In this document: piece by piece, positions 10,766 to 31,267 of the stretch
Layout: each line of letters begins with the position of its first letter
How positions within the stretch are numbered: the first letter of the stretch is position 1
Assembly (NCBI RefSeq): GCF_000016745.1
Contig: NC_009483.1
Coordinates: forward strand, 2,250,001-2,282,000
Reading direction: 5' to 3'
Source: Geotalea uraniireducens Rf4
GTDB taxonomy: Bacteria > Desulfobacterota > Desulfuromonadia > Geobacterales > Geobacteraceae
Length of the DNA: 32,000 nt
The notes under the pieces: model-generated
The model's input: only the letters and a program-made list of their open reading frames with translations
The model's database searches: none
Told to the model about the DNA's origin: nothing
Position numbers and translations under genes: made by a program

Positions 10766-10767
10766 AT

Positions 10768-13596: not shown

Positions 13597-13631
13597 TGCC
13601 TTGGTGGAGTGTTCGGATACGTTGCTTCGTG

Positions 13632-18018: not shown

Positions 18019-18119
18019 GATTAGTATCGATGCTCCGCGAGTCCCAAAACACTCCCTCCCCCCAACCCCCTCCCATCAAGGGAGGGGGAGAGAAATCGTA
18101 CGGAAGATTGGTAATAATC
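18019..18119. repeat. Short family-C-related repeat downstream of the P-loop gene
   Basis: The reverse complement of the right end AAGATTGGTAATAATC (18104-18119) matches the left end of the 10898-11070 element at 15/16 positions. The left end GATTAGTATCGATGCT is degenerate. Central hairpin CCCCCTCCC-ATCAA-GGGAGGGGG. Confidence 0.5.
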
Positions 18120-18146: not shown

Positions 18147-18162
18147 TGGCACACTATGTGCT
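18147..18162 (+). promoter_or_regulatory. Sigma-54 -24/-12 promoter candidate upstream of the NtrC-type regulator gene
   Basis: TGGCACACTATGTGCT has GG at 18148-18149 and GC at 18160-18161 with the canonical 10-nt gap. The -12 element is GTGC rather than TTGC. Confidence 0.55.
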
Positions 18163-18244
18163 AAAGGGGTATGAGCAGACTATGGTGGTATTTACGTCTG
18201 GAAATGAAAAGAACTGTCTCAAGTTTTGGGAAAGCGAGATTACG

Positions 18245-19663
18245 ATGACAAATATGTCGACAAATAATGGTAACGATCAGTCGGTTCTGATCGTAGACGA
18301 TGATAGCGATGTTCTAAACGAATTACGTGTGATGCTCCTGTCCAACGGCATCAGGGATATTATCACTCTTTCCGACAGCAGTGCCGTTATTGCCGAGTTG
18401 GATAAAGGCGGCATTTCAGTGCTGCTCATGGACTGGATCATGCCCGGTCTTACGGGGTCGGAGCTGCTTCCCCTGATAGTCCAGCGCTTTCCGCATATTC
18501 CGGTCATCGTCATAACGGCGGTGAGCGACGTGCAGACGGTGGTCAACTGCATCAAGCAGGGCGCTTTCGACTATATTACCAAGCCGGTCGATTCCGATCG
18601 GCTGCTGTTGACCATTCAGAAGGCTTTCCATATCAGCGAGCTCGCCAGCCAGAACAGAATCCTCAGGAACTACCTGCTGGGAGAGCCGCTGGCCCATCCG
18701 GAACATTTCAGCGACATTGTGACATGCAGCGACAAGATGCAGGCGCTTTTCAAGTTGATCGAGACCATCGCACCCTCCCGTCACCCGGTATTGATCAATG
18801 GTGAAACCGGTGTCGGCAAGGAGCTGATTGCCAGATCCATTCATAAGGCGAGCGGATTCAAAGGGGCCTTTGTCCCGGTGAACGTGGCAGGTCTTGACGA
18901 CATCATGTTCAGCGATACCCTTTTCGGCCACAGGAAGGGTGCATTTACCGGCGCCAACGAGGCAAGGGAGGGGCTGATAGCAAAAGCCCAGGGCGGCACG
19001 TTGTTTCTGGACGAAATCGGCGACATGAGTCCCGAATCCCAGATCAAGCTTTTGCGGCTTTTGCAGGAGCATGAGTACTATCGCCTCGGTTCCGATGCCC
19101 TGGTAAAATCCGATGCCCGCATCATCGCCGCATCCAATCAGGATATAGACGCTTTGATTAACCAGGGAAAGTTCAGGCAGGACCTCTATCAGCGCCTCTG
19201 TTTCCACGAGCTCAAGATACCGCCTCTCAGGGAGCGGAGAGAGGATATCATGCCCCTCATCGAGCATTATGTGGCCAAGGCCGCTGCAATATATGAAAAG
19301 GACATTCCCGATTTTTCACGGGAACTGTATATAGCTTTGCAGGAGTACGATTTTCCGGGCAATGTCCGTGAATTGATCAGCAAGGTCAGCAGGGGGGTGG
19401 CGCATAGCCGGAGGGGGATACTTACCCTGCAGGACTTTCCGGGAGTGCCGGCCAAGATGAACTTGGGCAGACCTGCCGTCCGGGTTGCATCAGACGGGTT
19501 TTTCAAGCTTCAGGCAACCTTTGAGCAATTTCCGAATTTTGGCGACATCGAGCGGTTGCTCTCCGACGAGGCCCTGAAGGCGGCGAAAGGCAACAAGACA
19601 GCTGCCGCTGAATTGCTCGGCATTTCCCGCCCGACGTTGCAAAAAAAGCTGACGACAGGGTGA
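18245..19663 (+). CDS. Sigma-54-dependent response regulator (NtrC family: REC - AAA+ - Fis HTH)
   Basis: REC domain (VLIVDDD...LLMDWIMPGLTG...KP), Walker A GETGVGKE, the GAFTGA loop and a C-terminal HTH (AAELLGISRPTLQKKL). The start is uncertain: candidates are GTG 18158, ATG 18245 and ATG 18254. Confidence 0.9.
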   Translation: MTNMSTNNGNDQSVLIVDDDSDVLNELRVMLLSNGIRDIITLSDSSAVIAELDKGGISVLLMDWIMPGLTGSELLPLIVQRFPHIPVIVITAVSDVQTVVNCIKQGAFDYITKPVDSDRLLLTIQKAFHISELASQNRILRNYLLGEPLAHPEHFSDIVTCSDKMQALFKLIETIAPSRHPVLINGETGVGKELIARSIHKASGFKGAFVPVNVAGLDDIMFSDTLFGHRKGAFTGANEAREGLIAKAQGGTLFLDEIGDMSPESQIKLLRLLQEHEYYRLGSDALVKSDARIIAASNQDIDALINQGKFRQDLYQRLCFHELKIPPLRERREDIMPLIEHYVAKAAAIYEKDIPDFSRELYIALQEYDFPGNVRELISKVSRGVAHSRRGILTLQDFPGVPAKMNLGRPAVRVASDGFFKLQATFEQFPNFGDIERLLSDEALKAAKGNKTAAAELLGISRPTLQKKLTTG

Positions 19664-19875
19664 AACTGAACTGCAATAACCCCACCTGTCCTCCCCTTAC
19701 TCTAAGGGGAGGGACGCCAAGTAATACCTTTAGTTGATCTTTCAGCAGAACCAGTCCCTCACGTTCACCCTCTTAAGATAAGAGGGGGGCAGGGGGAGTT
19801 ATGAGTGTGAATCCGCTCAAATCAGATTTTTATCCGCGTACCAATGCCTTTGGCTTTTTCTTGCTTGATTTCCGG

Positions 19876-21453
19876 CTACGCCGCCTGCGACAGGGGGAGC
19901 CTTATGGTGAAAATCGTTCCCTTGCCGGGTTCGGATTGCACCTCAAACCTCCCCTGGTGCTCGATTACGATGAAGTTGGAGATATAGAGCCCCAGACCGC
20001 TCCCCCCGTTGTCGATGCGGGTGGAGAAGAACGGTTCGTAGATCCTTTCCAGATGTTCCGGCAGTATGCCTTCCCCCTCATCCTCCACGGAAATGAGCAC
20101 CTCACCGCATATCCGGTCGAGGACCGTCACGAGTTTGATGGTCCCCATCCCGTTGGGCATGGCCTGGATGGCGTTGAGGAGCAGGTTGATGACGACCTGT
20201 TCGAGCTGGTGCCGGTTGCCGGTGATGAGTGGCAGGTCGGGATCCGGTTCTTGGGCGATGGAAAGATTGCCGTGGTGGCCGTGGATACGGATAACTGCCA
20301 GGGCGTCGTTTATGATCTGGTTCACGTTCACGTCGGACTGGAACTCGTTCCGGTCGCCGAGGCTGTAGGCCCTGAGATTCTTGATTACCTGTTCAATCCT
20401 CTCCGTATTGCGGATGATGTTCATTCCGCTCCTGGCAACCTCCTCGCCGGCCATACTGAAAGGTATGCCGCCGATGCTGAAATCCCCTTCCTCCCTGGCA
20501 ACACCTTCCAGAATAGGCACCGTATCCTTCCAGGCCTTGTTCAGGTACTGTCCGGCAAGCCTTATTGCGCCGTTGGGGTTGTTGATCTCATGGGCCATGC
20601 TCGATACGAGTAGCCCCAGCGACGTCATCCGGTTCGTCTGGATCAATTTGGCCATGAGCTGTTTTCTTTCTTCACGTACTTCGAGTTTCATGGCGTTGAA
20701 CAATTCTTCCTGCAAACGACGGTTTTCAGCCTCGCGGCTCTCCAGGGAGGCGGCCAGGTCGTTGATCGCCATGGCGGCCTGTCCGGGTTCGTCATCGGAT
20801 TCCGTTGCGATTCTCACGGAATAGTCCCCCATTCCGATTGTTTTCACCCCCTGCATCAATGCATTGAACGAATGCGTGGCCTTTTTCAGCGCCAGGTAAC
20901 TGAGCGATAGCACCATCAGCCAGAAGAATAAGGCCATGGTTGCGGAGAATATGACCAGCTCGCGCGTCTTTTTGGGAAGGTCGTTCGAATTCAGGGCCAG
21001 TCGGACAGTGCCGAGAGCTTTTCCTGAAGTGGCGGGATTGCCTGTCAGAGCCGATTCTGCAGAGGCTGCCAGGCTCCCGGAATCGACGGTAACCGTTACG
21101 CTCAGGGTGGTCGCCGGTGTTGTGTTTTCTCGTTTTCTGAGTTCGACCAAGACCTTACCGTCGTTGTTGGTTATGACTATACCGACAACGTCGGGTTTCT
21201 GCGCCGTTTCGGCAGCAATCCGCTCCAGCGTCTCTTTGTCCTCTGCATATAGTGGTAGGCGAATGCTGTTGGCGAGCAGTGATGTCAGCAGGAGCGTTTT
21301 TTCAGAGGCCTGCAACCGGTAAGAGCGGATTTCATGTTCGACAAATAGCGCCGTAAAGAGGGTGGTAATAAGGGTGGTGATGATAGTGAAGACGGCAAAG
21401 AGTCTGAAGCGGAAGCTTTTATTGAGTTTCTGGAGACGGCTCACGATGGACAT
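19876..21453 (-). CDS. Sensor histidine kinase (TM - about 135-aa periplasmic domain - TM - HAMP - HisKA - HATPase)
   Basis: H-box SSMAHEINNP, N-box NLLLNAIQA and G-boxes EDEGEGI and GSGLGL. Two hydrophobic helices bracket the extracytoplasmic region. ATG 21453 has GGAG 6 nt upstream, whereas ATG 21465 has no RBS. Confidence 0.88.
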   Translation of the reverse strand: MSIVSRLQKLNKSFRFRLFAVFTIITTLITTLFTALFVEHEIRSYRLQASEKTLLLTSLLANSIRLPLYAEDKETLERIAAETAQKPDVVGIVITNNDGKVLVELRKRENTTPATTLSVTVTVDSGSLAASAESALTGNPATSGKALGTVRLALNSNDLPKKTRELVIFSATMALFFWLMVLSLSYLALKKATHSFNALMQGVKTIGMGDYSVRIATESDDEPGQAAMAINDLAASLESREAENRRLQEELFNAMKLEVREERKQLMAKLIQTNRMTSLGLLVSSMAHEINNPNGAIRLAGQYLNKAWKDTVPILEGVAREEGDFSIGGIPFSMAGEEVARSGMNIIRNTERIEQVIKNLRAYSLGDRNEFQSDVNVNQIINDALAVIRIHGHHGNLSIAQEPDPDLPLITGNRHQLEQVVINLLLNAIQAMPNGMGTIKLVTVLDRICGEVLISVEDEGEGILPEHLERIYEPFFSTRIDNGGSGLGLYISNFIVIEHQGRFEVQSEPGKGTIFTIRLPLSQAA

Positions 21454-21654
21454 GGCGTACTCCATGGATTGGGGGTTGAACCATATATGTGGGGAAGGCA
21501 GATGGTCATAAGTGAATTGATCAGGACGCCCCTTTAATTATCGGTTCAATCGTCAAATGAAGGCGGGTTTATTATTCCGTGCGTATTGGTTATAGTTCAT
21601 TTGCGCCGCAAAGGCAATAACTATGCGTGAATAGGGCCGCTCGATTTTTTTGGG

Positions 21655-22977
21655 CTATTCCGACAACGTCTCTTTTGTTGCAGCCCGTGAGGAGGGGTAT
21701 CGGAGATCCTGGAGGATGAACCGCTCCAGTGCGGCGTCGTAGAAATCCTTGCGGCAGTCCACTTCGTCGATGACGCCGTTTTTCAGGAGGGTGAGGTAGC
21801 GGCAGCCGCCGAAGCATAGAGGTAGGTAGGCGCAGTCGAGGCATTCATCGGTTTTCCAGACGTCCAGGTTGTGGGAAACGGAATAATCTTTGGTTCCTTC
21901 TGCAAGTGTACCAATGGAGAGCTCCGGCCACCCCATGAAGGCGGAGCATTTATAGAGTGAGCCGTCGTAGTTGACGACCAGGTGGTTGTCGAATTCGATG
22001 ACGCAGGCCGCCTGGGTCGGCTTCATGGTCTTGAAGCCCCGTTTCAGGATCTCTTCCCGCAGGTACGGGGCTGCCTCCGTCACCCACGGCTCGCTGCCGG
22101 AGGCGCAGCAGGCAGAGGTGTCGGCGCTGGCCGTCCTGCCGGACTTGGGCATGATCGGGGCGAATTGAACCTCGCCGAGCCGTTCGGGGGGGATTCCCTC
22201 GGCAATGATATGGTCGAGCACTCGGGGGAATTCCCGGTAGTTGTCGCGGAAAAAATTGCCGCCAAGCTGCAGCTCGATCAGGTCGAAGCTCGCCTTGATG
22301 TTGGCGACGATGATGTCGTAACTCCCGACGCCGGAGACGAAGGGGCGCTGGCGGTCGTGGATCTCGCGGGGGCCGTCGAGGGTGAGAATGGCGCCGGTGA
22401 GCCCCAATGGGAGAAGTTCTTCGACAACGGTCCGGGTGAGAAGGGTGCCGTTGGTAGTCATGCCGAAGGAGAATTTAGTTCCATGAGCTTGGGCCGCGTC
22501 CAGCAGAGGGCGGGCGATTTCCCGGATGAGGGGAAGGGAGAGGAGCGGTTCGCCGCCGTAGAAGCCGAGCTTCACCTCCCGGCCGCGGCCGATCTGCTCA
22601 CTGATCACGGTATCCACCAGGAGGCGGGCCGTTTCCCGGGTCATGTAGTGGCGTCCCCGGAAATGGTCTTCAAAGCAGTAGGGGCAGGCCAGGTTGCAGT
22701 CCAGGTTCATGACCACCTTTGCGTAGAACCGGTTGTTCCGGGCATTGGCCCTCTTCACCAGGGAGGTCATTGCTGCCTGCTCGGCCTCGGGGTCGTCGAT
22801 GAGGATTTCCAGGCGGCGCAGGGTCTCTCTCTCTGTGTCGGTGAGGGTCCCTTCCCGCGCCGCTTCGAGGCGGTCTCCAGAGAGTCGGACCACCGACCCC
22901 TTTCGGGTCGAGTAGAGGAGATACGAGCCCGGCCGGTCGGAGTCGTGGTAGATTTTCAGGTAGTGGGAAAGGGGCAT
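21655..22977 (-). CDS. Radical SAM/SPASM peptide maturase, paralog 1 (geopeptide-type maturase candidate)
   Basis: Start MPLSHYLKIY has GGAGG at 22984-22988. Radical SAM triad CNLACPYC and C-terminal SPASM motif CLDCAYLPLCFGGC (Cx2Cx5Cx3C), plus the upstream Cys pair ACVIEF...YKC. The N-terminal ~90 aa look RRE/PqqD-like. The 36 extra codons in the ORF track overlap the hairpin. Confidence 0.88.
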   Translation of the reverse strand: MPLSHYLKIYHDSDRPGSYLLYSTRKGSVVRLSGDRLEAAREGTLTDTERETLRRLEILIDDPEAEQAAMTSLVKRANARNNRFYAKVVMNLDCNLACPYCFEDHFRGRHYMTRETARLLVDTVISEQIGRGREVKLGFYGGEPLLSLPLIREIARPLLDAAQAHGTKFSFGMTTNGTLLTRTVVEELLPLGLTGAILTLDGPREIHDRQRPFVSGVGSYDIIVANIKASFDLIELQLGGNFFRDNYREFPRVLDHIIAEGIPPERLGEVQFAPIMPKSGRTASADTSACCASGSEPWVTEAAPYLREEILKRGFKTMKPTQAACVIEFDNHLVVNYDGSLYKCSAFMGWPELSIGTLAEGTKDYSVSHNLDVWKTDECLDCAYLPLCFGGCRYLTLLKNGVIDEVDCRKDFYDAALERFILQDLRYPSSRAATKETLSE

Positions 22978-22990
22978 GTAAAACCTCCAG

Positions 22991-23016
22991 GAAAAGAGGG
23001 GAGCACGCTCCCCTCT
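22991..23016 (-). terminator. Terminator-like hairpin between precursor A1 and maturase 1
   Basis: Minus-strand sense is AGAGGGGAGC-GT-GCTCCCCTCT, a perfect 10-bp arm, followed by TTTTCC and then immediately by the maturase RBS. Confidence 0.55.
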
Positions 23017-23051
23017 TCGCAGTTCGATGCTGCTGTGCTGTCTCTGCGGCC

Positions 23052-23159
23052 TCAGGTCCGATTGGAGCTGCCTGCGGTGCAGCAAGTGTTCAGTTCCTCA
23101 TGGTCGGCGCGCCCCTCGTCCAGAACCTCCAGTTCCATCTTCTTTTGCGTCGTTTCCAT
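23052..23159 (-). CDS. RiPP precursor peptide A1 (35 aa): METTQKKMELEVLDEGRADHEELNTCCTAGSSNRT
   Basis: Hand translation of the minus strand. GGAGG lies 7 nt upstream of the ATG at 23159, with the TGA stop at 23052-23054. It sits 74 nt upstream of maturase 1 and is paralogous to A2-A4. Confidence 0.8.
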   Translation of the reverse strand: METTQKKMELEVLDEGRADHEELNTCCTAGSSNRT

Positions 23160-23252
23160 AGTGCTACCTCCTCTGTTGAAATACACCCGGTGCGGGTGGA
23201 AAAACCACAAAAATTCGACAAAATCAGCCTGTTGTGTATAGATGCGCCGGCT
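23160..23252 (-). promoter_or_regulatory. Precursor promoter/leader module, truncated copy (A1)
   Basis: Shares with the other three copies the 5' leader ...GTCGAATTTTT(C)GTGGTTTTTCCACCC-loop-GGGTG-ATTTCAACAGAGGAGG and the TATACA/TATAGCA box. The distal TTAAGCAC part is missing. Confidence 0.5.
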
Positions 23253-23290
23253 CTTCGCAGATGAATGCTGTAGATCTCACTTAGCGGTCC

Positions 23291-23398
23291 TCAGGTCCGG
23301 CCGGAGTTGCCTCCGCCACAGCAACTGTTCAATTCCTCGTGGTCCGCTCGCCCCTCGTCCAGAACCTCCAGCTCCATCTTCTTTTGCGTCGTTTTCAT
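23291..23398 (-). CDS. RiPP precursor peptide A2 (35 aa): MKTTQKKMELEVLDEGRADHEELNSCCGGGNSGRT
   Basis: This is the C-terminal 35 codons of the 84-aa ORF-track entry. The internal ATG at 23398 is preceded by AAGGAGG, and the upstream part of the long ORF is the conserved non-coding module. Confidence 0.8.
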   Translation of the reverse strand: MKTTQKKMELEVLDEGRADHEELNSCCGGGNSGRT

Positions 23399-23504
23399 AG
23401 CACTACCTCCTTTGTTGAAATGCACCCGGATTGGGTGGAAAAACCACGAAAAATTCGACAAAATCAGCCTGCTGTGTATAGATGTGCCGGTGCTTAATAA
23501 GATA
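23399..23504 (-). promoter_or_regulatory. Precursor promoter/leader module (A2)
   Basis: Near-identical to 25081-25190 and 27021-27127 over the leader, the TATACA box and TTAAGCAC. Confidence 0.5.
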
Positions 23505-23585
23505 CATGTTAATGGTGAATCAACCAAACAGACGCTTCCTGCCAAGACAGGTAACTCACTTTGAGGGCTATTCCTGCGACGTCTC

Positions 23586-24896
23586 CTATGTTGCAGTCTG
23601 TGATGAGGGGTACTGGAGATCCTGGAGGATGAATCGCTCCAGTACTGAGTCGTAGAACGCCTTGCGGCAGTCTACTTCGTCGATGACGCCGTTTTTCATG
23701 AGGGGCATGAGGCGGCAGCCGCCGAAGCAGAGTGGGAGATAAGCGCACTCCAGGCATTCATCGGTTTTCCAGACGTCCAGATTGTGGGAGACTGAATAAT
23801 CCCTGGTTCCTTCTGTAAGGGAGCCGATGGAGAGCTCCGGCCACCCCATGAAGACGGGGCATTTATAGAGTGAGCCGTCGTAGTTGACGACCAGGTCGTT
23901 GTCGAATTCGATGGCGCAGGCCGCCTGGGTCGGCTTCATGGCCTTGAAGCCCTGTTTCAGTATCTCTTCCCGCAGGAGCGGGGCTGCCTCCGTCACCCAT
24001 GGCTCGCTGCCGGAGGTGCAGCAGGCGGAGGTGTCGGCGCCGGTTGTAACCCCGGATCCGGACTTGGGTATGATCGGGGCGAACTGAACTTCGCCGATCC
24101 GTTCGGGTGGGATTCCCTCGGCAATGAGATGGTCGAGCATCCGGGGGAATTCCCGGTAGTCGTCACGGGAATAATTGCCGCCAAGCTGCAGTTCTATCAT
24201 GTCGAAGGTCGCCTTGATGTTGGCGACGATGATGTCGTAGCTCCCCGCGCCGGAGACGAAGGGGCGCTGGCGGTCGTGGATCTCGCGGGGGCCGTCGAGG
24301 GTGATGATGGCGCCGGTAAGCCCCAAGGGGAGAAGTTCCTCGACAACGGAGCGGGTGAGTAGGGTGCCGTTGGTGGTCAGGACAAAGGAGAACTTCACCC
24401 CTTTTTCAGCGGCGGCGTCCCGGAGGGGGATGGCGATTTCCCGGATGAGGGGTAGGGAGAGGAGCGGTTCGCCGCCGTAGAAGCCGAGCTTCACATCGCG
24501 ACCGCGGCCGATCTGCTCGCGGATCACGGTATCCACCAGGAGGCGGGCCGTGTCTTGGGTCATGTAGTGGCGCCCCCGGAAATGGTCTTCGAAGCAGTAG
24601 GGGCAGGCCAGGTTGCAGTCAAGGTTCATGACCACCTTGGCGTAGAACCGGTTGCTCCGGGCATTGGCCCTCTTCACCAGGGAGGTCATGGCCTCCCGCT
24701 CGGCCGCAGGGTCGTCGATGAGGATTTCAAGGCGGCGCAGAGTCTCCCGCTCTGCGTCGGTGAGGGTCCCTTCCCGTGCCGCTTCAAGGCGGTCTCCAGA
24801 GAGCCGGACGACCGACCCCTTCCGGGTCGAGTAGAGGAGATACGAGCCCGGCCGGTCGGAGTCGGGGTATATTTTCAGGTAACGGGAAAGGATCAT
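23586..24896 (-). CDS. Radical SAM/SPASM peptide maturase, paralog 2
   Basis: Start MILSRYLKIY has GGAGG at 24904-24908. It has the same CNLACPYC triad, with SPASM motif CLECAYLPLCFGGC. It is collinear with paralog 1 along its whole length and ends 6 codons earlier (TAG where paralog 1 has AAA). Confidence 0.88.
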   Translation of the reverse strand: MILSRYLKIYPDSDRPGSYLLYSTRKGSVVRLSGDRLEAAREGTLTDAERETLRRLEILIDDPAAEREAMTSLVKRANARSNRFYAKVVMNLDCNLACPYCFEDHFRGRHYMTQDTARLLVDTVIREQIGRGRDVKLGFYGGEPLLSLPLIREIAIPLRDAAAEKGVKFSFVLTTNGTLLTRSVVEELLPLGLTGAIITLDGPREIHDRQRPFVSGAGSYDIIVANIKATFDMIELQLGGNYSRDDYREFPRMLDHLIAEGIPPERIGEVQFAPIIPKSGSGVTTGADTSACCTSGSEPWVTEAAPLLREEILKQGFKAMKPTQAACAIEFDNDLVVNYDGSLYKCPVFMGWPELSIGSLTEGTRDYSVSHNLDVWKTDECLECAYLPLCFGGCRLMPLMKNGVIDEVDCRKAFYDSVLERFILQDLQYPSSQTAT

Positions 24897-24910
24897 GCGT
24901 AAACCTCCAG

Positions 24911-24935
24911 GAAAAGAGGGGAGCCCGGCTCCCAT
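24911..24935 (-). terminator. Terminator-like hairpin between precursor A3 and maturase 2
   Basis: Minus-strand sense is GGGAGCC-G-GGCTCCC followed by CTCTTTTCC. It occupies the same position relative to the RBS as 22991-23016. Confidence 0.5.
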
Positions 24936-24972
24936 CTTCGCAGTTCAATACTGCTGTGTTGTCTCTGTGGCC

Positions 24973-25080
24973 TCAGGTCCGATTGGAGTTGCCAGCAGAA
25001 CAGCAAGTATTCAGCTCCTCGTGGTTCGCGCGCCCCTCGTCCAAAACCTCCAGCTCCATCTTTTTTTGCGTAGTTTTCAT
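24973..25080 (-). CDS. RiPP precursor peptide A3 (35 aa): MKTTQKKMELEVLDEGRANHEELNTCCSAGNSNRT
   Basis: Hand translation. RBS GAGGAG is upstream of the ATG at 25080, with the TGA stop at 24973-24975. It sits 76 nt upstream of maturase 2 and is absent from the ORF track. Confidence 0.8.
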   Translation of the reverse strand: MKTTQKKMELEVLDEGRANHEELNTCCSAGNSNRT

Positions 25081-25223
25081 AGCGCTAACTCCTCTGTTGA
25101 AATGCACCCGATATGGGTGGAAAAACCACGAAAAATTCGACAAAATCAGCCTGCTGTGCTATAAGGTGCGCCGGTGCTTAATGAGTATACTATCGGTTCG
25201 TATTCCGGTTTCTTGAGGGTTTT
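25081..25223 (-). promoter_or_regulatory. Precursor promoter/leader module, full-length copy (A3)
   Basis: Aligns with 27021-27160 over about 140 nt, including the distal TATCGG..GTATTCCGGTT.CTTGAGG stretch. Confidence 0.5.
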
Positions 25224-25310
25224 CGAACGTTTTTATCAGTTGCATGCACTATTACTCATAATTAACGACTTTTGTCAAGGTTTGGCGTATACGCCGTCGA
25301 TGAGGAAGCC

Positions 25311-26792
25311 ATGCTGTCCGTGAAAGAATTTGCAGTGTCCGGGGTCAAGTGGACCACAATGTCAACCGTCCTTATGTCGGCAATGGAATTCATCACGTTG
25401 ACTATCCTTGCGCGTCTGCTTACCCCGGTTGATTTCGGCTTGATGGCGATGACGATGGTCGTGCTGGGCTTCGCTGCTGGATACGCGGATATGGGCTTAA
25501 GTGCAGTGATTGTCCAGCGACAGGATGTCAGCCGAAGTCAGCTCTCCAGCCTTTATTGGCTTAATCTCATTGTCGGTACAGTGATCTTTGTGCTTATATG
25601 GGCGGTGTCACCGCTTGCGGTTGCTTTTTTTCACGAGCCGCTTCTTTACTGGTTAATGCCTGTAAGTGCTTTAAGCTTTGTCATTATGTCGATAGGCCAG
25701 CAGTTTTCATATTTGCTGGAGAAGGATCTCCGTTTTGATCTTCTTGCCAAGCAGGAAATTTGTGCATGCTTTTCTGGAAATATTGTGGCCATTGTCTGTG
25801 CTTTTTGCGGCCATGGGGTTTGGTCGCTTGTCTGGGGACATCTGGCCAAAGCGGGGATGATAACAGTTCTTCTTGTGTGGTCTGGCTGGTCTCAATGGGC
25901 ACCGATGTTCCACTTCAAATGGAGAGACTTGAGCGGTTATCTGAGCTTCGGTCTCTATCAAATGGGGGAGCGGAGTATCTTTAATTTCAATTCGCGAATT
26001 GATCAGATTTTGATTGGTAAGCTTCTGGGGGCGCAGGAACTTGGTTATTATAACTTTGCCGTCAACCAGATTTTACTGCCGTTGTACAGGATCAATCCGC
26101 TTCTATCGCGGATCATCTTTCCAGTGTTTGCACGTTTGCAACATGACATTCCAGATCTGCGACAGAGTTATCTCAAGTTGATGAAACTGCTCAGTGCGCT
26201 CAATGCACCGCTTCTGTTTGGTTTGGGGGCGATGGCACCGCTTCTGATACCGCTAACTTTTGGTGTCCAATGGACACCTGCAGTGCTGTTGGTGCAGATA
26301 CTTGTTTTCTCTAGCTTTATCCGCAGCACTGTTGAGCCTATCGGCAGTATTCTTTTGGCGAAGGGCCGGGCCGATATCAGCTTTCGATGGAACCTCGCCC
26401 AAGCTTTCATTACCACGCCGTTGATCTTCATTGGAGCAAAGCTTTATGGTACTTTGGGAGTTGCCGTGGCGCTTGTCCTGCTGACAATAAGTTATGCAAT
26501 GGCAAATTACATCTTCTTAGTAAGACCTTTTATCGGTCCATGTGGAAAGCCTTATGCGTTTTCCATCCTCAAAGTAACAGCTCTGGCGGTTATAATGGCA
26601 AGTATTGTCTTGCTTATGTCTTTGGCTGGCGGTCATTCAGTTATTTGGTTAATTGGGGAAGCATGTGTTGGCATGTTAATTTATCTGCTACTTCTTCGGA
26701 CCGTTGATCAGGCGTTTTTCTTTGAAGTGAAAGAGATGTTGATAGGTGGGGGGGGAATACGTCAAGAATATGGAGTGGATTCTGCCCAATGA
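25311..26792 (+). CDS. MOP-superfamily exporter (Wzx/PST-type polysaccharide-biosynthesis/flippase family)
   Basis: GAGGAAG precedes the ATG at 25311. About 490 aa and very hydrophobic, with at least 12 predicted TM helices. The N-terminal pattern ILARLLTPVDFGLMAM is typical of the family. G+C is visibly lower than in the neighbouring genes. Confidence 0.8.
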   Translation: MLSVKEFAVSGVKWTTMSTVLMSAMEFITLTILARLLTPVDFGLMAMTMVVLGFAAGYADMGLSAVIVQRQDVSRSQLSSLYWLNLIVGTVIFVLIWAVSPLAVAFFHEPLLYWLMPVSALSFVIMSIGQQFSYLLEKDLRFDLLAKQEICACFSGNIVAIVCAFCGHGVWSLVWGHLAKAGMITVLLVWSGWSQWAPMFHFKWRDLSGYLSFGLYQMGERSIFNFNSRIDQILIGKLLGAQELGYYNFAVNQILLPLYRINPLLSRIIFPVFARLQHDIPDLRQSYLKLMKLLSALNAPLLFGLGAMAPLLIPLTFGVQWTPAVLLVQILVFSSFIRSTVEPIGSILLAKGRADISFRWNLAQAFITTPLIFIGAKLYGTLGVAVALVLLTISYAMANYIFLVRPFIGPCGKPYAFSILKVTALAVIMASIVLLMSLAGGHSVIWLIGEACVGMLIYLLLLRTVDQAFFFEVKEMLIGGGGIRQEYGVDSAQ

Positions 26793-26870
26793 GAAACAAA
26801 AAATTCCGGAGATTGGGCTTTAAGCATGTTTTATTACCTTCAACGATGTGCCCTCTGTCAACTTGATGCC

Positions 26871-26894
26871 AAAAAAAGGGGAGCAAAGCTCCCC
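26871..26894 (-). terminator. Rho-independent terminator of precursor A4
   Basis: Minus-strand sense is GGGGAGC-TTT-GCTCCCC followed by TTTTTTT, 28 nt after the A4 stop. Confidence 0.8.
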
Positions 26895-26921
26895 CGGGGT
26901 GATGATGCTGCGGCCTTTAAT

Positions 26922-27020
26922 TCACTGACGTGAAGTACCGCCTGAACAACAAGAATTAAGCTCTTCCATGTCGTCGCGTCCTTCGTCGAGGACTACCAGT
27001 TCCCTATTTTCCGTTTCCAT
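26922..27020 (-). CDS. RiPP precursor peptide A4 (32 aa, stand-alone): METENRELVVLDEGRDDMEELNSCCSGGTSRQ
   Basis: This is the C-terminal 32 codons of the 86-aa ORF-track entry. AAGGAGG lies 8 nt upstream of the ATG at 27020. It has the same LDEGR...EELNSCC architecture as A1-A3. Confidence 0.75.
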   Translation of the reverse strand: METENRELVVLDEGRDDMEELNSCCSGGTSRQ

Positions 27021-27160
27021 TTCTGCTACCTCCTTTGTTGAAATTACCCGGTGTGGGTTGTTAAAAGTATTAAATTCGACAAAATCAGCCTGCTGTGCTA
27101 TAAGACGCCAGTGCTTAATGAGTATATTATCGGCACGTATTCCGGTTACTTGAGGATTTA
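27021..27160 (-). promoter_or_regulatory. Precursor promoter/leader module (A4), shared divergently with the TonB-dependent receptor gene
   Basis: Conserved TATAGCACAGCAGGCTGATTTTGTCGAATTT and TTAAGCAC are present. The + strand end of the module supplies GAGGA just before the receptor TTG start. Confidence 0.5.
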
Positions 27161-29017
27161 TTGTATTTTTTTCGCTTTCCATTACTGATTGTCCTCCTCG
27201 TCTTTTGTATTGTGGGTGTCTCGCCGTTCACTGCCGGTGCGAGCGAAGACGATCAGACCCTCTCCCTCTTCTCTGGAGGGGATCAGCCGCTTGTTTCCTC
27301 TGGCCGCACCCCCCGCCCCACTTCCCGGATTGCCGAAAACGTCACCGTCATCACCGCCGAACAGATCGCGCTTCTAAATGCCCACACCTTGGCCGATGTA
27401 CTGAACACTGTCCCCGGCTTCCAGCTCGAACAGGTCCAGACCCCTGGCAGTTTTACGTTCTTTTCCCTTCAGGGCGCGACTGATGCCCAGGCCCATGTAC
27501 AGGTACTGATCGACGGCGTTCCCCAGAACAACCTGCTGCAAGGTGCGGCTGATGTGGGGCTGATCCCTGTTCAACAGATCGACCGGGTGGAGATCATCAA
27601 GGGTGCAGCCTCGGCCGCCTGGGGGCAGGCTCTCGGTGGAGTGATTAACGTTATCACCAAAGCGCCTGAGAGTGAGAGGGTGATTGGCGGCACGGCCGCT
27701 GCCTCCATGGGTGAACGTCTCACCACCGACATGCGGGGGGAGTTAAGCGGCACCGTCAGGCGCTTCGGATACTACCTTTCCGGCGGTAACCTCCATTCTA
27801 ACGGCCTTCTCCCCGGCAACCGGATAAACAATAGCAATGTTTATGGCAAGTTCACCTACGATCTTCCCAGCAAGGGGAGCCTCATGCTTGGCTTCGATTT
27901 TCGTAAAGCTGACCGGGGGCTCGATGAAACGTTGCTCTATCATGACACAACGGAAGCCCATCGAGCATATACATTCCTGACGTTCACCTATCCTCTAACC
28001 GAGCGACTGACGCTGGAATTGGCAGCCAGAGCTAGTCACCGGAATGACGAGACGCTGTTGGGGCATTTCGATCAGGGATTGGTTGTTCTTGACAATAATT
28101 TTACGGTACGTGAATCAAGACGGGGTGGGAGCGCCAAGCTCGTCTGGGGGGACAGTCTCACCAACCTGGTGGCCGGGGTGGAGTATGAACATGGTGAAAC
28201 AGAGCAATGGGATGCCTTAGTTCCCAATTCCCCTTTCCTGACCGATCGGACCATGGACCGTTGGGCGACATCCGCCAACGGCACCTTCTCTTACGGAGCA
28301 CTGACCATCCTTCCCGGCGTCCGTTTTGACCACACCGGCCTGAGTAGCGATGCCTTGAGCTATACCCTGGGGGCTACCTACCGTCTTACGGAGAAGACCG
28401 TGCTGCGTGGCTATGGTGCCAGGGGGTACAGTCTTCCCAACGCCATATGGAATAACGGACCACAGAAAGTCTGGACTGTGCAGGCCGGGGCTGAAACCGA
28501 GGCGGTTCCTTATCTCTGGCTGAAAGGGACTTTCTTTTACAATGACACATGGAATGTTGAGGTCGGCGATTTCAATCTCAGCTCTCCTGGTGTTACCCTC
28601 AGGGAGCAGATCAAGCAAGGATTCGAGCTTGAGGCACGAACCATTCCCTTGTACGGCTTTTCCCTGGCTGGCGGCTATACCTTTACTGACGCCAGAGACG
28701 GGGAAACGAAGGAACGCCTTAAATCCGTACCTGAACACGGGGCAAAGCTGGCCCTGAATTACGACAACATTAGCCTGGGGCTGCGCGGGGTAATGACCGG
28801 CAATTACGTTCAGTGGAACGCTCCAATCGGCAATAACGCCAAAGATTCGGCAGTCATCTGGGACCTGCACCTGACGAAGATGCTGTTTCCTGCCTGGGAG
28901 TTGTCCCCGGAGTTGTTCTTCTCGGTCCATAACCTTTTTAACGGCTCTCAGTATCAAAGTGATTCGTTCAAGAACGCCCCCCGCTGGCTGGAAGGTGGAG
29001 TGAGGTGGCGATTTTGA
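27161..29017 (+). CDS. TonB-dependent outer-membrane receptor
   Basis: Signal peptide ...PFTAGA/SEDD. Plug motifs ENVTVITAEQI and IDRVEIIKGAASAAWG, a beta-barrel-like repetitive C-terminal part and a terminal aromatic residue (RWRF). The TTG start is uncertain. Confidence 0.85.
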   Translation: MYFFRFPLLIVLLVFCIVGVSPFTAGASEDDQTLSLFSGGDQPLVSSGRTPRPTSRIAENVTVITAEQIALLNAHTLADVLNTVPGFQLEQVQTPGSFTFFSLQGATDAQAHVQVLIDGVPQNNLLQGAADVGLIPVQQIDRVEIIKGAASAAWGQALGGVINVITKAPESERVIGGTAAASMGERLTTDMRGELSGTVRRFGYYLSGGNLHSNGLLPGNRINNSNVYGKFTYDLPSKGSLMLGFDFRKADRGLDETLLYHDTTEAHRAYTFLTFTYPLTERLTLELAARASHRNDETLLGHFDQGLVVLDNNFTVRESRRGGSAKLVWGDSLTNLVAGVEYEHGETEQWDALVPNSPFLTDRTMDRWATSANGTFSYGALTILPGVRFDHTGLSSDALSYTLGATYRLTEKTVLRGYGARGYSLPNAIWNNGPQKVWTVQAGAETEAVPYLWLKGTFFYNDTWNVEVGDFNLSSPGVTLREQIKQGFELEARTIPLYGFSLAGGYTFTDARDGETKERLKSVPEHGAKLALNYDNISLGLRGVMTGNYVQWNAPIGNNAKDSAVIWDLHLTKMLFPAWELSPELFFSVHNLFNGSQYQSDSFKNAPRWLEGGVRWRF

Positions 29018-29901
29018 GAGCGCTACTTTCCTTCATACTTGCCCTATATATCTTCGCTGCTGCACCGGCCCTTGCGACAGACCTGCTCATCGTCCAGAGC
29101 ACGCGGCACTCAAGCTACACCGAGGCTTTGAACGGCTTTAGAAACGCTTGCAACGCCAGGAGCCGGGTGGTGGTCCTGGATGACTACGCCGAGGTCGATG
29201 TGGCCCGCCTCGTCCGGGAGGAGCAACCCGTTGCGATCCTGGCCGTGGGTGATTCCGCTCTGGATGCGGTGAAGAAGATCCGCCGCGTCCCGATCGTCTC
29301 TCTCATGTCTATCAGCCCCTCCACCGGGAAGAGCATGCCGCCCAATGTGACCGGCGTGAGAATGACGATTTCTCCCGAGCGCTACATGACCCTCTTCAAC
29401 GCCCTTCGGTTGGACCGGGTCGGTGTGATTTACAACACCGCCCGCAGCGGCGCATACCTGCGGCGCGCCCGTCAATCAGCCGAACAAGCCGGTGTCGATC
29501 TGGTGTTGCGCGAGGTGGACAATCCCCGTGAAACGTCGCATCAGCTGGCAAGTTTGAAGGGTAAAGTGGACGCCCTTTGGCTCCTTCCCGACTCGACTGC
29601 GGTGACCCGGGAAACGGTGGAAGCCTATTTCTTCTTCTCCATGGAGCAGAGAAAGCCGGTCATTGCCTTCTCTGCGGTCTATCTCTCCCTGGGGGCTGCT
29701 GCCACTCTGGAAATCGACCGCCACGGCATGGGGATGCAGGCGGGTGAAGTCGCCAATCGCCTGCTGAAAGGGGCTTCACCGGCCGAAATACCGTTTAGCG
29801 ACCCCCTCGATATCTTCCTGAAAACCAACCCGAGCGTCATCCGCAAGCTCGAACTCAACCAGCAGGGGCTGAGCAAGCTCACCTTCGAAGGGCGCGATTG
29901 A
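29005..29901 (+). CDS. Periplasmic ABC_sub_bind-type (COG2984-like) binding protein
   Basis: GTG start overlaps the receptor stop by 13 nt. Signal peptide ...AAAPALA/TD. The pattern RVGVIYN...KVDALWLLPDSTAV...KPVIAFS...EVANRLLKGASPAEIPF is typical of this family (from memory). There is no adjacent permease or ATPase. Confidence 0.7.
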   Translation: MAILRALLSFILALYIFAAAPALATDLLIVQSTRHSSYTEALNGFRNACNARSRVVVLDDYAEVDVARLVREEQPVAILAVGDSALDAVKKIRRVPIVSLMSISPSTGKSMPPNVTGVRMTISPERYMTLFNALRLDRVGVIYNTARSGAYLRRARQSAEQAGVDLVLREVDNPRETSHQLASLKGKVDALWLLPDSTAVTRETVEAYFFFSMEQRKPVIAFSAVYLSLGAAATLEIDRHGMGMQAGEVANRLLKGASPAEIPFSDPLDIFLKTNPSVIRKLELNQQGLSKLTFEGRD

Positions 29902-29949: not shown

Positions 29950-30083
29950 TGTAAAAATTTTTTACAAGAATGTAAACGCCCTACTGGCGCGGGTTTACGG
30001 GTAAGTGTAAAATTTTTTTACAAGAATGTAAACGCCCTATTGGTGCGGGTTTACGGGGAAGTGTAAAAAAATTTTACAATAAG
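29950..30083. repeat. 2.4 tandem copies of a 56-bp unit carrying TGT-N11-ACA palindromes
   Basis: Palindromes are TGTAAAAATTTTTTACA (29950-29966), TGTAAAATTTTTTTACA (30006-30022) and TGTAAAAAAATTTTACA (30062-30078), with an exact 56-bp period. Units 1 and 2 also contain GTAAAC-N15-GTTTAC. Confidence 0.85.
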
Positions 30084-30267
30084 TCCCCCCCAGTTTCTCC
30101 CCCCTTCATGCTCCTGCCCCGTGCTGTCGCTGCCGCATCGGATAATAATTAGAACGTGAATATTCAGCATGTTACGGCCGAATACCGGTGTATTGTCCTA
30201 CATTTGAACACTTTTGGCATGTAACGTGATGTTGTATATGAATAAAACATTCAAGGAAGTGTCATAT

Positions 30268-30831
30268 ATGGATCAATTGCTTGTAAAACCGACCATTATT
30301 CATCCCCTCTTTATCGACGGTGTGTTGGCGCCTGAGTCTGGCGGGGTGATCGGCATGACCATATGCCCGGGCAAGAAAGACAACGGCTATTTTTCCGGTT
30401 TCTGGGAACGGAACCTCGACGCTGACCTTCAGGCGATCAAGGACTGGGGCGCTGTGGCGCTAGTGAGCCTGATTGAAGGGTTTGAATTCAGGTTTCTCCA
30501 GGTCCAGGACCTGCCGGAAAAAGCGGGTATCTTCGGCCTGCGCTGGATGCATCTGCCGATCCCGGAAGCGAGCATTCCCGATCAGTCCTTCGAGGAAATA
30601 TGGCAGGAAGCTGGTCCGCAGCTCCGTCAGTGGCTCAAAGAGGGAAAGAAGATCGTCCTTCACTGTAATGAGGGATTCGGCCGAACCGGCATCATTGCCG
30701 CCAGGTTGCTTGTGGAATTAGGCGTAGAGCCGGATGATGCGATACATTCCACCCGGAAGGCCCGCAGCGGCGCTATTGTAAACGTGCTTCAGGAGAAATA
30801 TGTCCGGCAATGCAAATCGTCTGAGGCTTGA
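30268..30831 (+). CDS. Cys-based (CX5R) protein phosphatase, dual-specificity/PTP-like
   Basis: AAGGAAG lies 8 nt upstream of the ATG at 30268. Active-site signature HCNEGFGRTG (HCxxGxxR[ST]). Confidence 0.75.
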   Translation: MDQLLVKPTIIHPLFIDGVLAPESGGVIGMTICPGKKDNGYFSGFWERNLDADLQAIKDWGAVALVSLIEGFEFRFLQVQDLPEKAGIFGLRWMHLPIPEASIPDQSFEEIWQEAGPQLRQWLKEGKKIVLHCNEGFGRTGIIAARLLVELGVEPDDAIHSTRKARSGAIVNVLQEKYVRQCKSSEA

Positions 30832-30871
30832 TTTTTAAACGGGCAGTTCAGTGTTTCTGCGGCCGGAATTG

Positions 30872-31267
30872 ATGGATGAAAAGATCCGGAGGTGTAGGTT
30901 GTCTGCAAAGCGCATAGTGGTAGTAGATGATAGCAGGGTGGTGTTGAGCGTTGTAACGGATATCCTCGAAGCTGCAGGGCATAATGCAGTTGCAACCCAA
31001 TCGGGTATTGAAGCCAATACATATATCTACGGTCAGCATCCACCAGATCTGATATTGCTTGATGTCGAGATGCCCCTGCTCAACGGAGACAAGAAGGCAA
31101 GTATTTACAAGGCGGATTTGCACCTGAAGAAGACGCCGATAATCCTCATGTCCCATAAAACCGATGCTGAAATGGAGGAACTCTGTCAGTCTTCAGGCGC
31201 TGACGGTTACATTCTGAAACCATTTGAGAAAGATGCGCTTTTGGAACTGTTAAGAAAATATTGTTAG
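30872..31267 (+). CDS. Single-domain response regulator (CheY-like receiver)
   Basis: VVVDDS, the phospho-acceptor context LILLDVEMP, and the MS and ILKPF motifs. The start is either GTG 30851 or ATG 30872. Confidence 0.8.
   Translation: MDEKIRRCRLSAKRIVVVDDSRVVLSVVTDILEAAGHNAVATQSGIEANTYIYGQHPPDLILLDVEMPLLNGDKKASIYKADLHLKKTPIILMSHKTDAEMEELCQSSGADGYILKPFEKDALLELLRKYC

Follow-up and report, generated by a model that had tools for sequence, protein, structure and literature searches.

The geopeptide locus of Geotalea uraniireducens Rf4 combines genes for producing a short modified peptide with genes for a receptor set, and this coupling is tight and two-way among Geobacterales. It is strongly supported, because the neighbouring genes travel with the maturase in both forward and reverse tests. 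The genomic coupling suggests, without proving, that Geobacter-type bacteria take up and sense their own peptide. Our preferred reading, a tentative one, is that the producer and receptor halves form one functional unit, through which the cell may take up and sense its own product.

The locus was analysed in a 32,000 nt stretch of contig NC_009483.1 (the window). All island genes listed in an initial annotation were found at or near the positions it gave, and the island reaches past 29901, with a phosphatase-like gene and then a stand-alone receiver, to 31267. Its features are:

18147–18162, plus strand: sigma-54 type −24/−12 promoter TGGCACACTATGTGCT, 5′ of the activator gene
18158–19663, plus strand: NtrC-type sigma-54 enhancer-binding response regulator; REC, AAA+ with GAFTGA (Sigma54_activat) and HTH_8 (Pfam and NCBIfam); likely ATG at 18245
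19876–21465, minus strand: HAMP/HisKA/HATPase histidine kinase (Pfam); start probably at 21453
21655–22980, minus strand: geopeptide radical SAM/SPASM maturase 1 (TIGR04280, 660 bits, cut-off 400)
23052–23159, minus strand: precursor A1, METTQKKMELEVLDEGRADHEELNTCCTAGSSNRT (TIGR04229, 40 bits, cut-off 30)
23291–23398, minus strand: precursor A2
23586–24896, minus strand: geopeptide radical SAM/SPASM maturase 2 (TIGR04280, 650 bits)
24973–25080, minus strand: precursor A3
25081–25271, no strand: divergent control region A3/MOP, with repeat families D5–D7 (alignment)
25272–26792, plus strand: MOP (Wzx-type) flippase, divergent from A3 (PRK10459, 610 bits, cut-off 273); likely start at 25311
26877–26895, minus strand: terminator-like hairpin 3′ of A4, also positioned to end the MOP gene
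26922–27020, minus strand: precursor A4, METENRELVVLDEGRDDMEELNSCCSGGTSRQ (TIGR04229, 41.5 bits)
27021–27160, no strand: divergent control region A4/receptor
27161–29017, plus strand: TonB-dependent receptor, plug and barrel, 618 aa (Pfam)
29005–29901, plus strand: orphan periplasmic ABC_sub_bind (PF04392) protein with signal peptide (Pfam)
30214–30831, plus strand: DSP/PTP-like phosphatase (HCNEGFGRT; Pfam), an accessory gene of one subclade
30851–31267, plus strand: stand-alone receiver domain protein (Pfam), a possible accessory

As initially annotated, the kinase gene is convergent with the activator gene and lies downstream of maturase 1, and A4 is divergent from the receptor gene. The distance from maturase 1 to the kinase gene is 190 nt.

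The peptide belongs to a catalogued family, since the precursors match TIGR04229 (“geopeptide”) and both maturases match TIGR04280 above the NCBIfam cut-offs. This family is uncharacterised and has a bioinformatic definition only (“hypothetical equivalog”); a literature search found no paper on it. Each short precursor has a leader containing the motif h-x-h-h-x-x-G and a tail that varies and is 6–13 residues long, and its Cys-Cys is invariant. A CC precursor lies directly 5′ of the maturase in 64/64 loci. The two maturases in the window are 86–87% identical, and the CX3CX2C and SPASM cysteines are invariant. The nearest relatives of the geopeptide maturases are thioether-forming enzymes, as is the closest solved relative of maturase 2, CteB (5wgg). 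Judged by family relationship, the maturase most probably forms thioether cross-links at both cysteines.

Conservation of the neighbours had been named initially as the point on which the proposed circuit depended, and the receptor, ABC_sub_bind protein and HAMP kinase were found beside the maturase in essentially all Geobacterales loci whose flanks were long enough. The forward test covered 54 such maturase loci from other Geobacterales genomes. The ABC_sub_bind protein was present in all 54 and the TonB-dependent receptor in 49 (40 of the 41 where both flanks were present), and a HAMP kinase of the window's architecture lay within 7 kb in 45. None of the three gave a match in 304 kb of outer flanks. 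The reverse test started from 48 loci centred on the binding protein; a maturase was present in 40, and the other eight were receptor “solos”. Receptors for signals or public goods show this pattern, which is counted in favour of own-product sensing. Unbiased all-against-all clustering of ORFs from 81 loci recovered no conserved families other than those of the maturase, binding protein, receptor, kinase and activator. The activator had also been expected to travel with the maturase. Its orthologues (50–79% identity) were always together with an orthologous kinase, but were present in only 23 of the 54 loci (about 40%). The initially noted association of receptor/ABC_sub_bind pairs with kinases was borne out, including in solo triads, but no diguanylate cyclase partner was found, nor literature on such pairs.

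All loci come from a single order, Geobacterales, and shared descent therefore contributes to this pattern. Inherited synteny without any functional link is nevertheless scarcely credible. The same parts are retained in three different gene orders, and the loci tolerate relocation of the kinase, tandem duplication of whole modules and divergence of the maturase to 50% identity, whereas the surrounding genes show no conservation whatever. Synteny alone is effectively refuted by conservation that tolerates rearrangement.

The receptor half is closely linked at the level of translation. The 13-nt overlap reported between the receptor and binding-protein genes is exact: the GTG start of the ABC_sub_bind gene, preceded by a GGTGGAG ribosome-binding site, overlaps the receptor stop. 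Overlapping stop and start codons join receptor, binding-protein and kinase genes, and most loci show translational coupling between the kinase and binding-protein genes. The binding protein was modelled by AF2 as a class I PBP fold (pLDDT 90.8). Its orphan status was confirmed, as no ABC permease or ATPase is encoded anywhere in the window and none is conserved across the 81 loci. Its solved relatives are much smaller than peptide-binding proteins, and their known ligands are single aromatic amino acids, which we count against the preferred reading.

The type I receptor is a plain plug-and-barrel protein of BtuB size, and that of the window has no N-terminal signalling domain. Type II loci encode TonB and an Oar-like receptor that carries a CarboxypepD_reg domain. 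Oar secretes PopC in Myxococcus, and the geopeptide receptor could likewise work outward, secreting the peptide over the outer membrane with the binding protein as a periplasmic chaperone. The Oar-like type II receptors and the lack of any other encoded outer-membrane exit route are in keeping with this. We consider it very improbable, given that export through such receptors is exceptional, that the type I receptor is so plain, and that the inner-membrane step and the kinase would be left unexplained.

The MOP exporter, described initially as an island component, falls outside the conserved set and occurs in 2 of the 81 loci (the window and L005, at the same position). No protease gene is present anywhere in the window, as had been observed, and the clustering of the 81 loci yielded neither a conserved exporter nor a conserved leader protease. 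We count the rarity of the MOP gene and the lack of a conserved exporter or leader protease against own-product sensing.

Methanobactin operons contain mbnA, mbnBC, the TonB-dependent transporter MbnT, the periplasmic binding protein MbnE, the MATE exporter MbnM and regulators. Geopeptide loci parallel this layout in their precursor, maturase, TonB-dependent transporter, binding protein and optional MOP-superfamily exporter, which raises the possibility of a public good rather than a signal. On this view the peptide, once matured, or a small molecule derived from it would be a secreted metallophore or cofactor (compare methanobactin and PQQ), recovered by the receptor and held in the periplasm by the binding protein, and the kinase would only tune expression. 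The invariant partners are indeed the receptor and binding protein and not the kinase, the binding-protein family takes small molecules, the Cys-Cys could be a metal ligand, and the receptor solos resemble siderophore piracy. However, no locus encodes an inner-membrane importer, the coupling of kinase and binding-protein genes would be unexpected, and an enzyme that formed thioethers like its relatives would consume the thiols. Variable tails and multiple paralogous systems per genome also agree better with specificity than with a shared chemistry. Overall, we regard a public good as unlikely.

A change of peptide class goes with a change of receptor set, since maturases are equally similar across types (52% between types I and II, 54% within type I) whereas binding proteins (26% vs 46%) and receptors (36% vs 46%) are not. 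The proposed match between peptide and binding protein was not seen at finer scale: within the main arrangement, tail similarity shows no relation to the binding protein after correction for the maturase. The partial r values within type I were 0.60 for the maturase, 0.21 (weak) for the receptor and 0.01 for the binding protein. This lack of tracking is counted against the preferred reading, as are the triads of receptor, binding protein and kinase that also occur without geopeptide genes. Both observations would suit receptor genes that sense an unrelated external compound and control, or share regulation with, a peptide acting elsewhere, such as an antimicrobial or an intracellular effector. 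So would the lack of a conserved exporter, and co-regulation alone would also give divergent transcription from a shared intergenic region. Such a regulator, however, would need no dedicated TonB-dependent receptor per peptide locus. The receptor set is retained per producer locus (ABC_sub_bind 54/54, receptor 49/54), is swapped when the peptide class changes, and is held separately for each system in the several genomes with two or three. Sensing of an unrelated compound is thus also improbable, to about the same degree as a public good.

The kinase spans the membrane with two helices, and its periplasmic domain, about 125 aa long, resembles PAS/PDC (AF2 model, Foldseek). The closest fold matches of this sensor are WalK and LapD-type domains, which partner proteins control; the LuxQ match was weak (rank 39). 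Three type I loci have receptor and binding protein with no kinase within 7 kb by tblastn criteria, two of them checked gene by gene, and these are counted against own-product sensing. The DSP/PTP-like gene lies 3′ of the binding-protein gene in L001 and 3′ of the maturase in L008, L011 and L019. Counterparts of the stand-alone receiver (41–51% identity) occur near the kinase in 10 Geomonas/Citrifermentans loci.

Sites equivalent to the sigma-54 promoter of the window's activator gene precede orthologous activator genes in L010, L036 and L025. No sigma-54 promoter was found 5′ of the precursors, receptor or MOP gene in the window, and direct feedback by the activator on precursor transcription, as first envisaged, is therefore unsupported here. 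The A3/MOP and A4/receptor upstream regions are duplicates of each other. The promoter of Geomonas precursors is of sigma-70 type and includes an extended −10 element; this and the lack of sigma-54 promoters before the window precursors are counted against the preferred reading. In the clade of L064, L065, L072, L068, L077 and L078, a textbook sigma-54 promoter lies directly ahead of the precursor, and L065 encodes a kinase and activator pair. Judging from these promoters, activator feedback on the precursor is plausible in that clade.

Under own-product sensing, the radical SAM/SPASM maturase would modify the short precursors, and the matured peptide or a fragment would leave the cell by factors outside the conserved core, the Wzx-type MOP protein being an optional extra in the window. 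The peptide may be too large or too scarce for passive crossing of the outer membrane, and we therefore propose that it is pumped into the periplasm by the small TonB-dependent receptor. The binding protein, lacking an ABC partner, would capture it on arrival and present it to the PAS-like periplasmic domain of the HAMP kinase. The kinase would phosphorylate a variable output, the sigma-54 activator in the window and hybrid phosphorelays elsewhere. The matured peptide would thus be the ligand, and signalling may feed back on its transcription.

Among known systems, the geopeptide family models TIGR04229 and TIGR04280 describe the same arrangement in relatives of Geobacter, short CC peptides beside a SPASM radical SAM enzyme, but the models consulted omit the receptor, binding protein and kinase partners. 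The ranthipeptide/sactipeptide enzymes CteB/SCIFF, PapB and QhpD are the next-best family matches of the maturases and also act on Cys-containing peptides. However, the geopeptide maturases score under those families' cut-offs throughout, and their substrate has a single Cys-Cys pair. TrpX, 3lft and CD0873, which are PF04392 Trp/Tyr ABC-transporter binding proteins, have Pfam family and fold in common with the geopeptide binding protein. The latter is only about 20% identical to them, scores 44.8 bits against the TrpX cut-off of 390, and has no permease or ATPase, its gene being coupled instead to a TonB-dependent receptor and a kinase.

LuxP-LuxQ-LuxO, TorT-TorS and ChvE-VirA likewise encode an orphan periplasmic binding protein with a membrane kinase having a periplasmic domain, and the output in the window is a sigma-54 activator of the LuxO/NtrC type. 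Those systems have small metabolites as ligands and do not require a receptor in the outer membrane, whereas the geopeptide kinase has a single PAS-like sensor domain and a putative contact with the binding protein. Methanobactin loci also join a RiPP precursor and maturase to a dedicated TonB-dependent receptor and a binding protein without an adjacent permease; a MOP-superfamily exporter is optional, and the regulators vary. The geopeptide loci differ in having a radical SAM/SPASM maturase and not MbnBC, a PF04392 binding protein and not one of OppA/DppA type, and a two-component system in place of a sigma/anti-sigma pair, and their link to metal is putative.

The genes that the initial annotation had named were all found in the region, exactly as described there. 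The G+C content of the window was about 54%, and the genes were arranged as follows.

18158-19663, plus strand: ORF of the activator (REC/sigma-54 AAA+/HTH_8), with a probable ATG start at 18245
19876-21453/21465, minus strand: HAMP histidine kinase, convergent with the activator
21655-22980, minus strand: radical SAM/SPASM maturase 1
23052-23159, minus strand: precursor A1
23291-23398, minus strand: precursor A2
23586-24896, minus strand: radical SAM/SPASM maturase 2
24973-25080, minus strand: precursor A3
25272-26792, plus strand: MOP flippase family gene
26922-27020, minus strand: precursor A4
27161-29017, plus strand: TonB-dependent receptor
29005-29901, plus strand: ABC_sub_bind (PF04392) protein

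The two maturases were 86-87% identical. The receptor and binding-protein genes overlapped by 13 nt, between the GTG start of the latter, which was preceded by a GGTGGAG ribosome-binding site, and the stop codon of the former. About 100 nt of upstream sequence was common to all four precursor genes. The divergent A3/MOP and A4/receptor intergenic regions were duplicates of each other as far as the point where the plus-strand gene begins, so that the control region preceding the MOP gene is a copy of that of the receptor. This double layout, with a precursor facing a MOP gene and another facing a receptor, was also seen in G. argillaceus (L005; L-numbers denote related loci in other genomes). 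Terminator-like hairpins were present between A1 and its maturase, between A3 and its maturase, and after A4.

Several other features adjoined these genes. Between the binding-protein gene and a phosphatase-like gene lay a 56-nt tandem repeat (29950-30079, 2.3 copies, 90% matches), each unit of which contained two palindromes, TGTAAAAATTTTTTACA and GTAAAC...GGGTTTAC. The phosphatase-like gene itself (30214-30831, DSP/PTP-like, CX5R motif HCNEGFGRT) was also found after the binding protein in L001 and after the maturase in L008, L011 and L019. A stand-alone receiver was likewise encoded downstream of the binding-protein gene (30851-31267); 10 Geomonas/Citrifermentans loci had counterparts of it (41-51% identity) close to the kinase and adjoining a CheB-like gene. 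The activator gene was flanked by G+C-rich hairpins (18051-18093 and 19690-19787: CCCCCTCCC...GGGAGGGGG; CCTCCCCTTACTCTAAGGGGAGG; CCCTCTTAAGATAAGAGGG), which are probably terminators separating it from its neighbours. Positions 1-13600 were occupied by genes for a NiFe hydrogenase (an operon for the small subunit, FeS, NrfD-like, large subunit and HycI protease) and for its maturation (hypA/B/F/D/E), with a near-consensus sigma-54 site, TGGCACGGCTGTTGCC, at 1091-1106 directly 5′ of the small-subunit ORF. A small PilZ-domain protein was encoded on the minus strand between the hyp genes and an aminotransferase gene (13632-13913); L088 also possessed a PilZ gene, near a kinase-activator pair.

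The peptide and its maturase belong to the geopeptide RiPP family, which is already catalogued. The two maturases matched the NCBIfam model TIGR04280 (“geopeptide radical SAM maturase”) at 660 and 650 bits (cut-off 400) and over its full length (positions 1-427 of 428). A1 and A4 matched TIGR04229 (“geopeptide”) at 40.0 and 41.5 bits (curated cut-off 30), and A2 and A3 were near-identical paralogues among the precursors. A1 and A3 lay 70-75 nt 5′ of maturases 1 and 2, respectively, and a precursor with a Cys-Cys pair was found immediately 5′ of the maturase in 64 of the 64 loci examined. Homologues in Geobacter, Geotalea, Geomonas and Desulfuromonadaceae carry the geopeptide-maturase annotation. 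The CX3CX2C motif (C94, C98, C101) and eight more cysteines were invariant among 18 aligned homologues, and the TIGR04085 SPASM domain was matched above its cut-off. The next-best family matches, all below cut-off, were CefB, Nif11-type maturase, PapB, QhpD and SCIFF maturase, and the closest solved structure was CteB (E 2.6e-25). Since these are all cysteine-directed, thioether-forming enzymes, the predicted chemistry is most likely thioether formation at the Cys-Cys pair. We found no published description of geopeptides or of TIGR04280 in the literature.

A scan with the maturase alignment, taking one genome per GTDB species, recovered 80 loci with 50-81% maturase identity, all from Geobacterales or from MAGs binned near Geobacterales. 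Partners were counted by tblastn, using proteins of the window and of a divergent locus, within 7 kb of the maturase; the count covered the 54 loci whose sequence extended 5.5 kb or more upstream of it. The initial annotation had asked whether the neighbouring genes travel with the maturase, and this was borne out for the ABC_sub_bind protein (54 of 54 loci), the TonB-dependent receptor (49 of 54, and 40 of the 41 loci with both flanks complete) and the HAMP kinase (45 of 54). It held only in part for the orthologous sigma-54 activator, which was present in just 23 of the 54. The partner families did not occur at all in 304 kb of sequence more than 7 kb away from the maturase.

All-against-all clustering of the ORFs from 81 loci yielded only five conserved families, namely the maturase, the binding protein, the receptor, the kinase and the activator; the other recurrent clusters were shadow ORFs of these five. 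No conserved exporter or protease was detected among the 81 loci. The MOP flippase gene matched PRK10459 at 609.7 bits (cut-off 273), but a counterpart was found in only one of 54 other loci. The MOP exporter that the initial annotation noted inside the island is thus no part of the conserved set. We consider it very improbable that the receptor itself transports outward. A protease gene had already been reported as not visible, and indeed there was none in the 32 kb. The binding protein was correctly described as an orphan, since ABC permease and ATPase genes were absent from the whole 32 kb and none was conserved beside it in the 81 loci, so that it lacks the partners of an ABC importer. A bacteriocin with its uptake receptor was considered as an alternative and rejected: a toxin producer would not retain, next to the toxin genes, the receptor through which the toxin enters, and no immunity gene was conserved.

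The gene order of the modules varied. In type I (36-37 loci) the receptor, binding-protein and kinase genes follow one another in that order, divergent from the precursor and maturase genes; the Geotalea clade, including the window, is a variant in which the kinase has been relocated 3′ of the maturase. In type II (about 15 loci) the binding protein is followed by hybrid kinases, again divergent from the precursor and maturase, and the downstream genes encode a second binding protein, two receptors and TonB. In type III (2 loci) the binding protein is divergent from a receptor-precursor-maturase series. The receptor, binding-protein and kinase genes were linked by overlaps of 4 or 13 nt. Several genomes possessed two or three systems with a separate receptor set for each, for example GWC2_53_11 (L020 and L034), co269_58 (L004 and L024) and Geomesophilobacter sediminis (L086). 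In the last of these, two tandem complete modules (L086, 4601-16727), each with a maturase, a receptor and a binding protein, have one activator and one kinase in common. Pure synteny as an explanation of the constant association is scarcely credible, because the conservation survives rearrangement and duplication while the genes around the modules are not conserved between loci. This argues for function rather than inherited synteny.

The receptor half also differed with the class of peptide. The peptides of type II loci were a class apart, with LVVLEKGND.AF.GP..CC ahead of a hydrophobic tail. Mean maturase identity was 52% between types I and II and 54% within type I, whereas binding-protein identity was 26% between types and 46% within type I, and receptor identity was 36% and 46%, respectively. 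As similarity of the binding protein and receptor falls between the types while that of the maturase holds, the receptor half is exchanged together with the peptide class. Within type I, peptide-tail similarity was compared with each protein using a partial Mantel test, which is confounded by linkage and is not counted here as support; the partial r was 0.60 for the maturase, a weak 0.21 for the receptor (reached in none of 2000 permutations) and 0.01, a null result, for the binding protein. The idea that the binding protein recognizes the tail thus finds no support in this linkage-confounded test.

The association was also examined in the reverse direction. Binding-protein orthologues adjoin the maturase in the isolate genomes of Geobacter sp. 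AOG2 and Geomesophilobacter sediminis, and the kinase orthologue of Oryzomonas japonica shows the same arrangement. When metagenomes were scanned with an alignment of the binding protein, 48 loci with 3.8 kb or more of upstream sequence were recovered; 47 of them had the receptor and 40 (83%) the maturase. The eight loci without a maturase within 8 kb fell into three groups. In L097, L099, L112, L123 and L131 the receptor/binding-protein pair had a confirmed kinase next to it, in L116 and L118 the pair was present and a kinase was not found, and L100 lacked both receptor and kinase. L099 retained a geopeptide-like small ORF (LKVLFEGQEPEAVQSCCSTSATAKVR). A receptor-ABC_sub_bind-HAMP kinase-REC operon with 37-40% identity to the window genes was present on the Geobacter anodireducens plasmid pSD (L081, 5076-9822), with no geopeptide maturase within 14.7 kb; upstream of this operon were genes for an M50 peptidase, HU and an ICMT-like methyltransferase. 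Among plasmids, only this one from Geobacter was found to carry a triad. Homologues of the binding protein on plasmids of other phyla turned out to belong to ordinary ABC transporters, with permease and ATPase, and these plasmid sequences gave no sign of the arrangement beyond Geobacterales. In L088 (9001-12031), kinase and activator orthologues (48% identity) were located beside prophage-like genes and a ParE toxin, and the maturase, receptor and binding protein were absent upstream of the pair. This looks like a locus disrupted by insertion.

Producers thus all have a receptor set, and some receptor sets occur without a producer. The same asymmetry is known for signal receptors and in siderophore piracy. 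The reading with the most support, to which we give slightly less than even confidence, is a unit of two parts, a producer and a dedicated uptake and sensing arm. The precursor and maturase would form the producer, the receptor, orphan binding protein and kinase would form the arm, and the peptide product would be its ligand. Alternatively, the set could serve to recover a public good derived from the peptide, for instance a metallophore or a cofactor, and the kinase would then be accessory; or it could sense an unrelated ligand which merely co-regulates the peptide. We regard each of these two explanations as unlikely. What chiefly goes unexplained is the lack of an exporter and a protease, together with the preference of the binding-protein family for small ligands.

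Structural models bear on this last point. The binding protein was modelled (pLDDT 90.8) as a class I periplasmic binding protein, and its nearest structures were the tryptophan- and tyrosine-binding proteins 3lft, 3lkv and CD0873. It is small relative to peptide-binding proteins, and if the geopeptide is the ligand, it would probably take only part of the peptide or a small derivative. The kinase has two transmembrane helices either side of residues 43-167, and the AF2 model of this sensor (pLDDT 77) was a single fold resembling PAS/PDC. Its best matches were the membrane-proximal region of WalK (TM-score 0.73) and the periplasmic domain of a LapD orthologue (E 5e-4), followed by KinD and CitA. 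The WalK and LapD sensors are controlled by partner proteins, and CitA binds a small ligand directly. The predicted fold would be compatible with docking of the binding protein on the kinase sensor. By Pfam, the receptor consisted of Plug and barrel only (618 aa, the size of BtuB) with no signalling extension; it had no N-terminal STN domain and the window no ECF sigma factor, the features of FecA-type transducers.

The activator was of NtrC type, with REC, AAA+ Sigma54_activat with GAFTGA, and HTH_8 (Pfam), and a phospho-acceptor region was visible in the translation. It accompanied the orthologous classical kinase in all 21 loci with enough flank, and we therefore take the two to be a cognate pair; in other loci hybrid kinases take this place. 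A good sigma-54 promoter, TGGCACACTATGTGCT, was found 5′ of the activator gene at 18147, and equivalent sites precede the activator orthologues in L010, L036 and L025. By contrast, no GG-N10-GC -24/-12 element was found in the window 5′ of A1-A4, the MOP gene or the receptor gene, the GG/GC spacings being 9 or 11 where present. A weighted-consensus scan found no sigma-54 promoters at the precursors of most loci, and apparent sites in L014, L037 and L045 were merely coding sequence for M-A/E-I-D/E-V-L. Geomonas precursors had a conserved sigma-70 type promoter, TTGCA-N17-TGnTAAT, and a hairpin before the maturase. In one clade (L064, L065, L072, L068, L077 and L078), however, a textbook sigma-54 promoter (TGGCATTGAGTATGCA or TGGTATGGAGTATGCA) was located 55-65 nt 5′ of the precursor, which it faces, abutting the start codon of the receptor on the other strand. 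One member, L065, has the kinase and a convergent sigma-54 activator. Weaker candidates were present at the precursors of L010 and L036. With sigma-54 promoters in these loci and none at the window precursors, two-component feedback onto precursor transcription is plausible in some clades. The feedback suggested for the window had no indication in its promoter motifs.

A TTTGTCC(A) motif in the leader RNA, 3′ of the sigma-54 promoter of this clade, resembles TTTGTCGA of the window precursor leaders. The element of about 100 nt upstream of A1-A4 (CAGGCTGATTTTGTCGAATTT, with the hairpin CACCC..GGGTG) was absent from the 80 other loci at up to 4 mismatches and had no Rfam match; it is window-specific. 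No upstream activator site common to the related loci was identified, and candidate activator targets elsewhere in these loci were discarded, as the sigma-54 sites fell within coding regions.

The genomic association is solid and its mechanism is unproven. A catalogued and unstudied RiPP family has an obligatory dedicated partner set of outer-membrane receptor, orphan binding protein and kinase, and the geopeptide is a defined candidate ligand for the widespread, functionally obscure orphan PF04392 proteins beside sensor kinases. We found no description in the literature of this constant coupling, in which a TonB-dependent receptor, an orphan PF04392 protein and a HAMP kinase accompany a geopeptide RiPP, and nothing relevant on ABC_sub_bind proteins with TonB, on Geobacter ranthipeptides with TonB-dependent receptors or on RiPPs with TonB-dependent, histidine kinase or two-component partners. 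Metal reduction, bioremediation and electricity-producing biofilms are driven by relatives of Geobacter, yet little is known of how these bacteria communicate from cell to cell or of the small molecules that they secrete. The system offers a testable case of Gram-negative peptide signalling through a TonB-dependent receptor, or of a public good of a new RiPP type that comes with a dedicated arm for uptake and sensing. More speculatively, and in our opinion doubtfully, a cell-to-cell signal of Geobacterales could be a radical-SAM-modified ribosomal peptide that is imported by a dedicated TonB-dependent receptor and read in the periplasm by a kinase-coupled orphan binding protein, with strain-specific tails, several orthogonal channels per genome and eavesdropping by receptor sets that have no maturase nearby. 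If true, this would be a peptide quorum-sensing architecture not described for Gram-negative bacteria.

The geopeptide system is a member of neither of the known systems that it resembles. Methanobactin operons are alike in architecture only, having a receptor, a binding protein and an optional exporter of the MOP superfamily. They are defined by MbnB/MbnC and an oxazolone-thioamide copper-binding product, whereas the maturases here are Radical_SAM/SPASM enzymes and no other enzyme is conserved. The likeness to LuxPQ-LuxO and TorTS lies in putative binding-protein-dependent signalling, through a complex of the binding protein with the periplasmic domain of the kinase; for such a complex the coupling of the genes and the PAS-like fold of the sensor would here be indirect indications.
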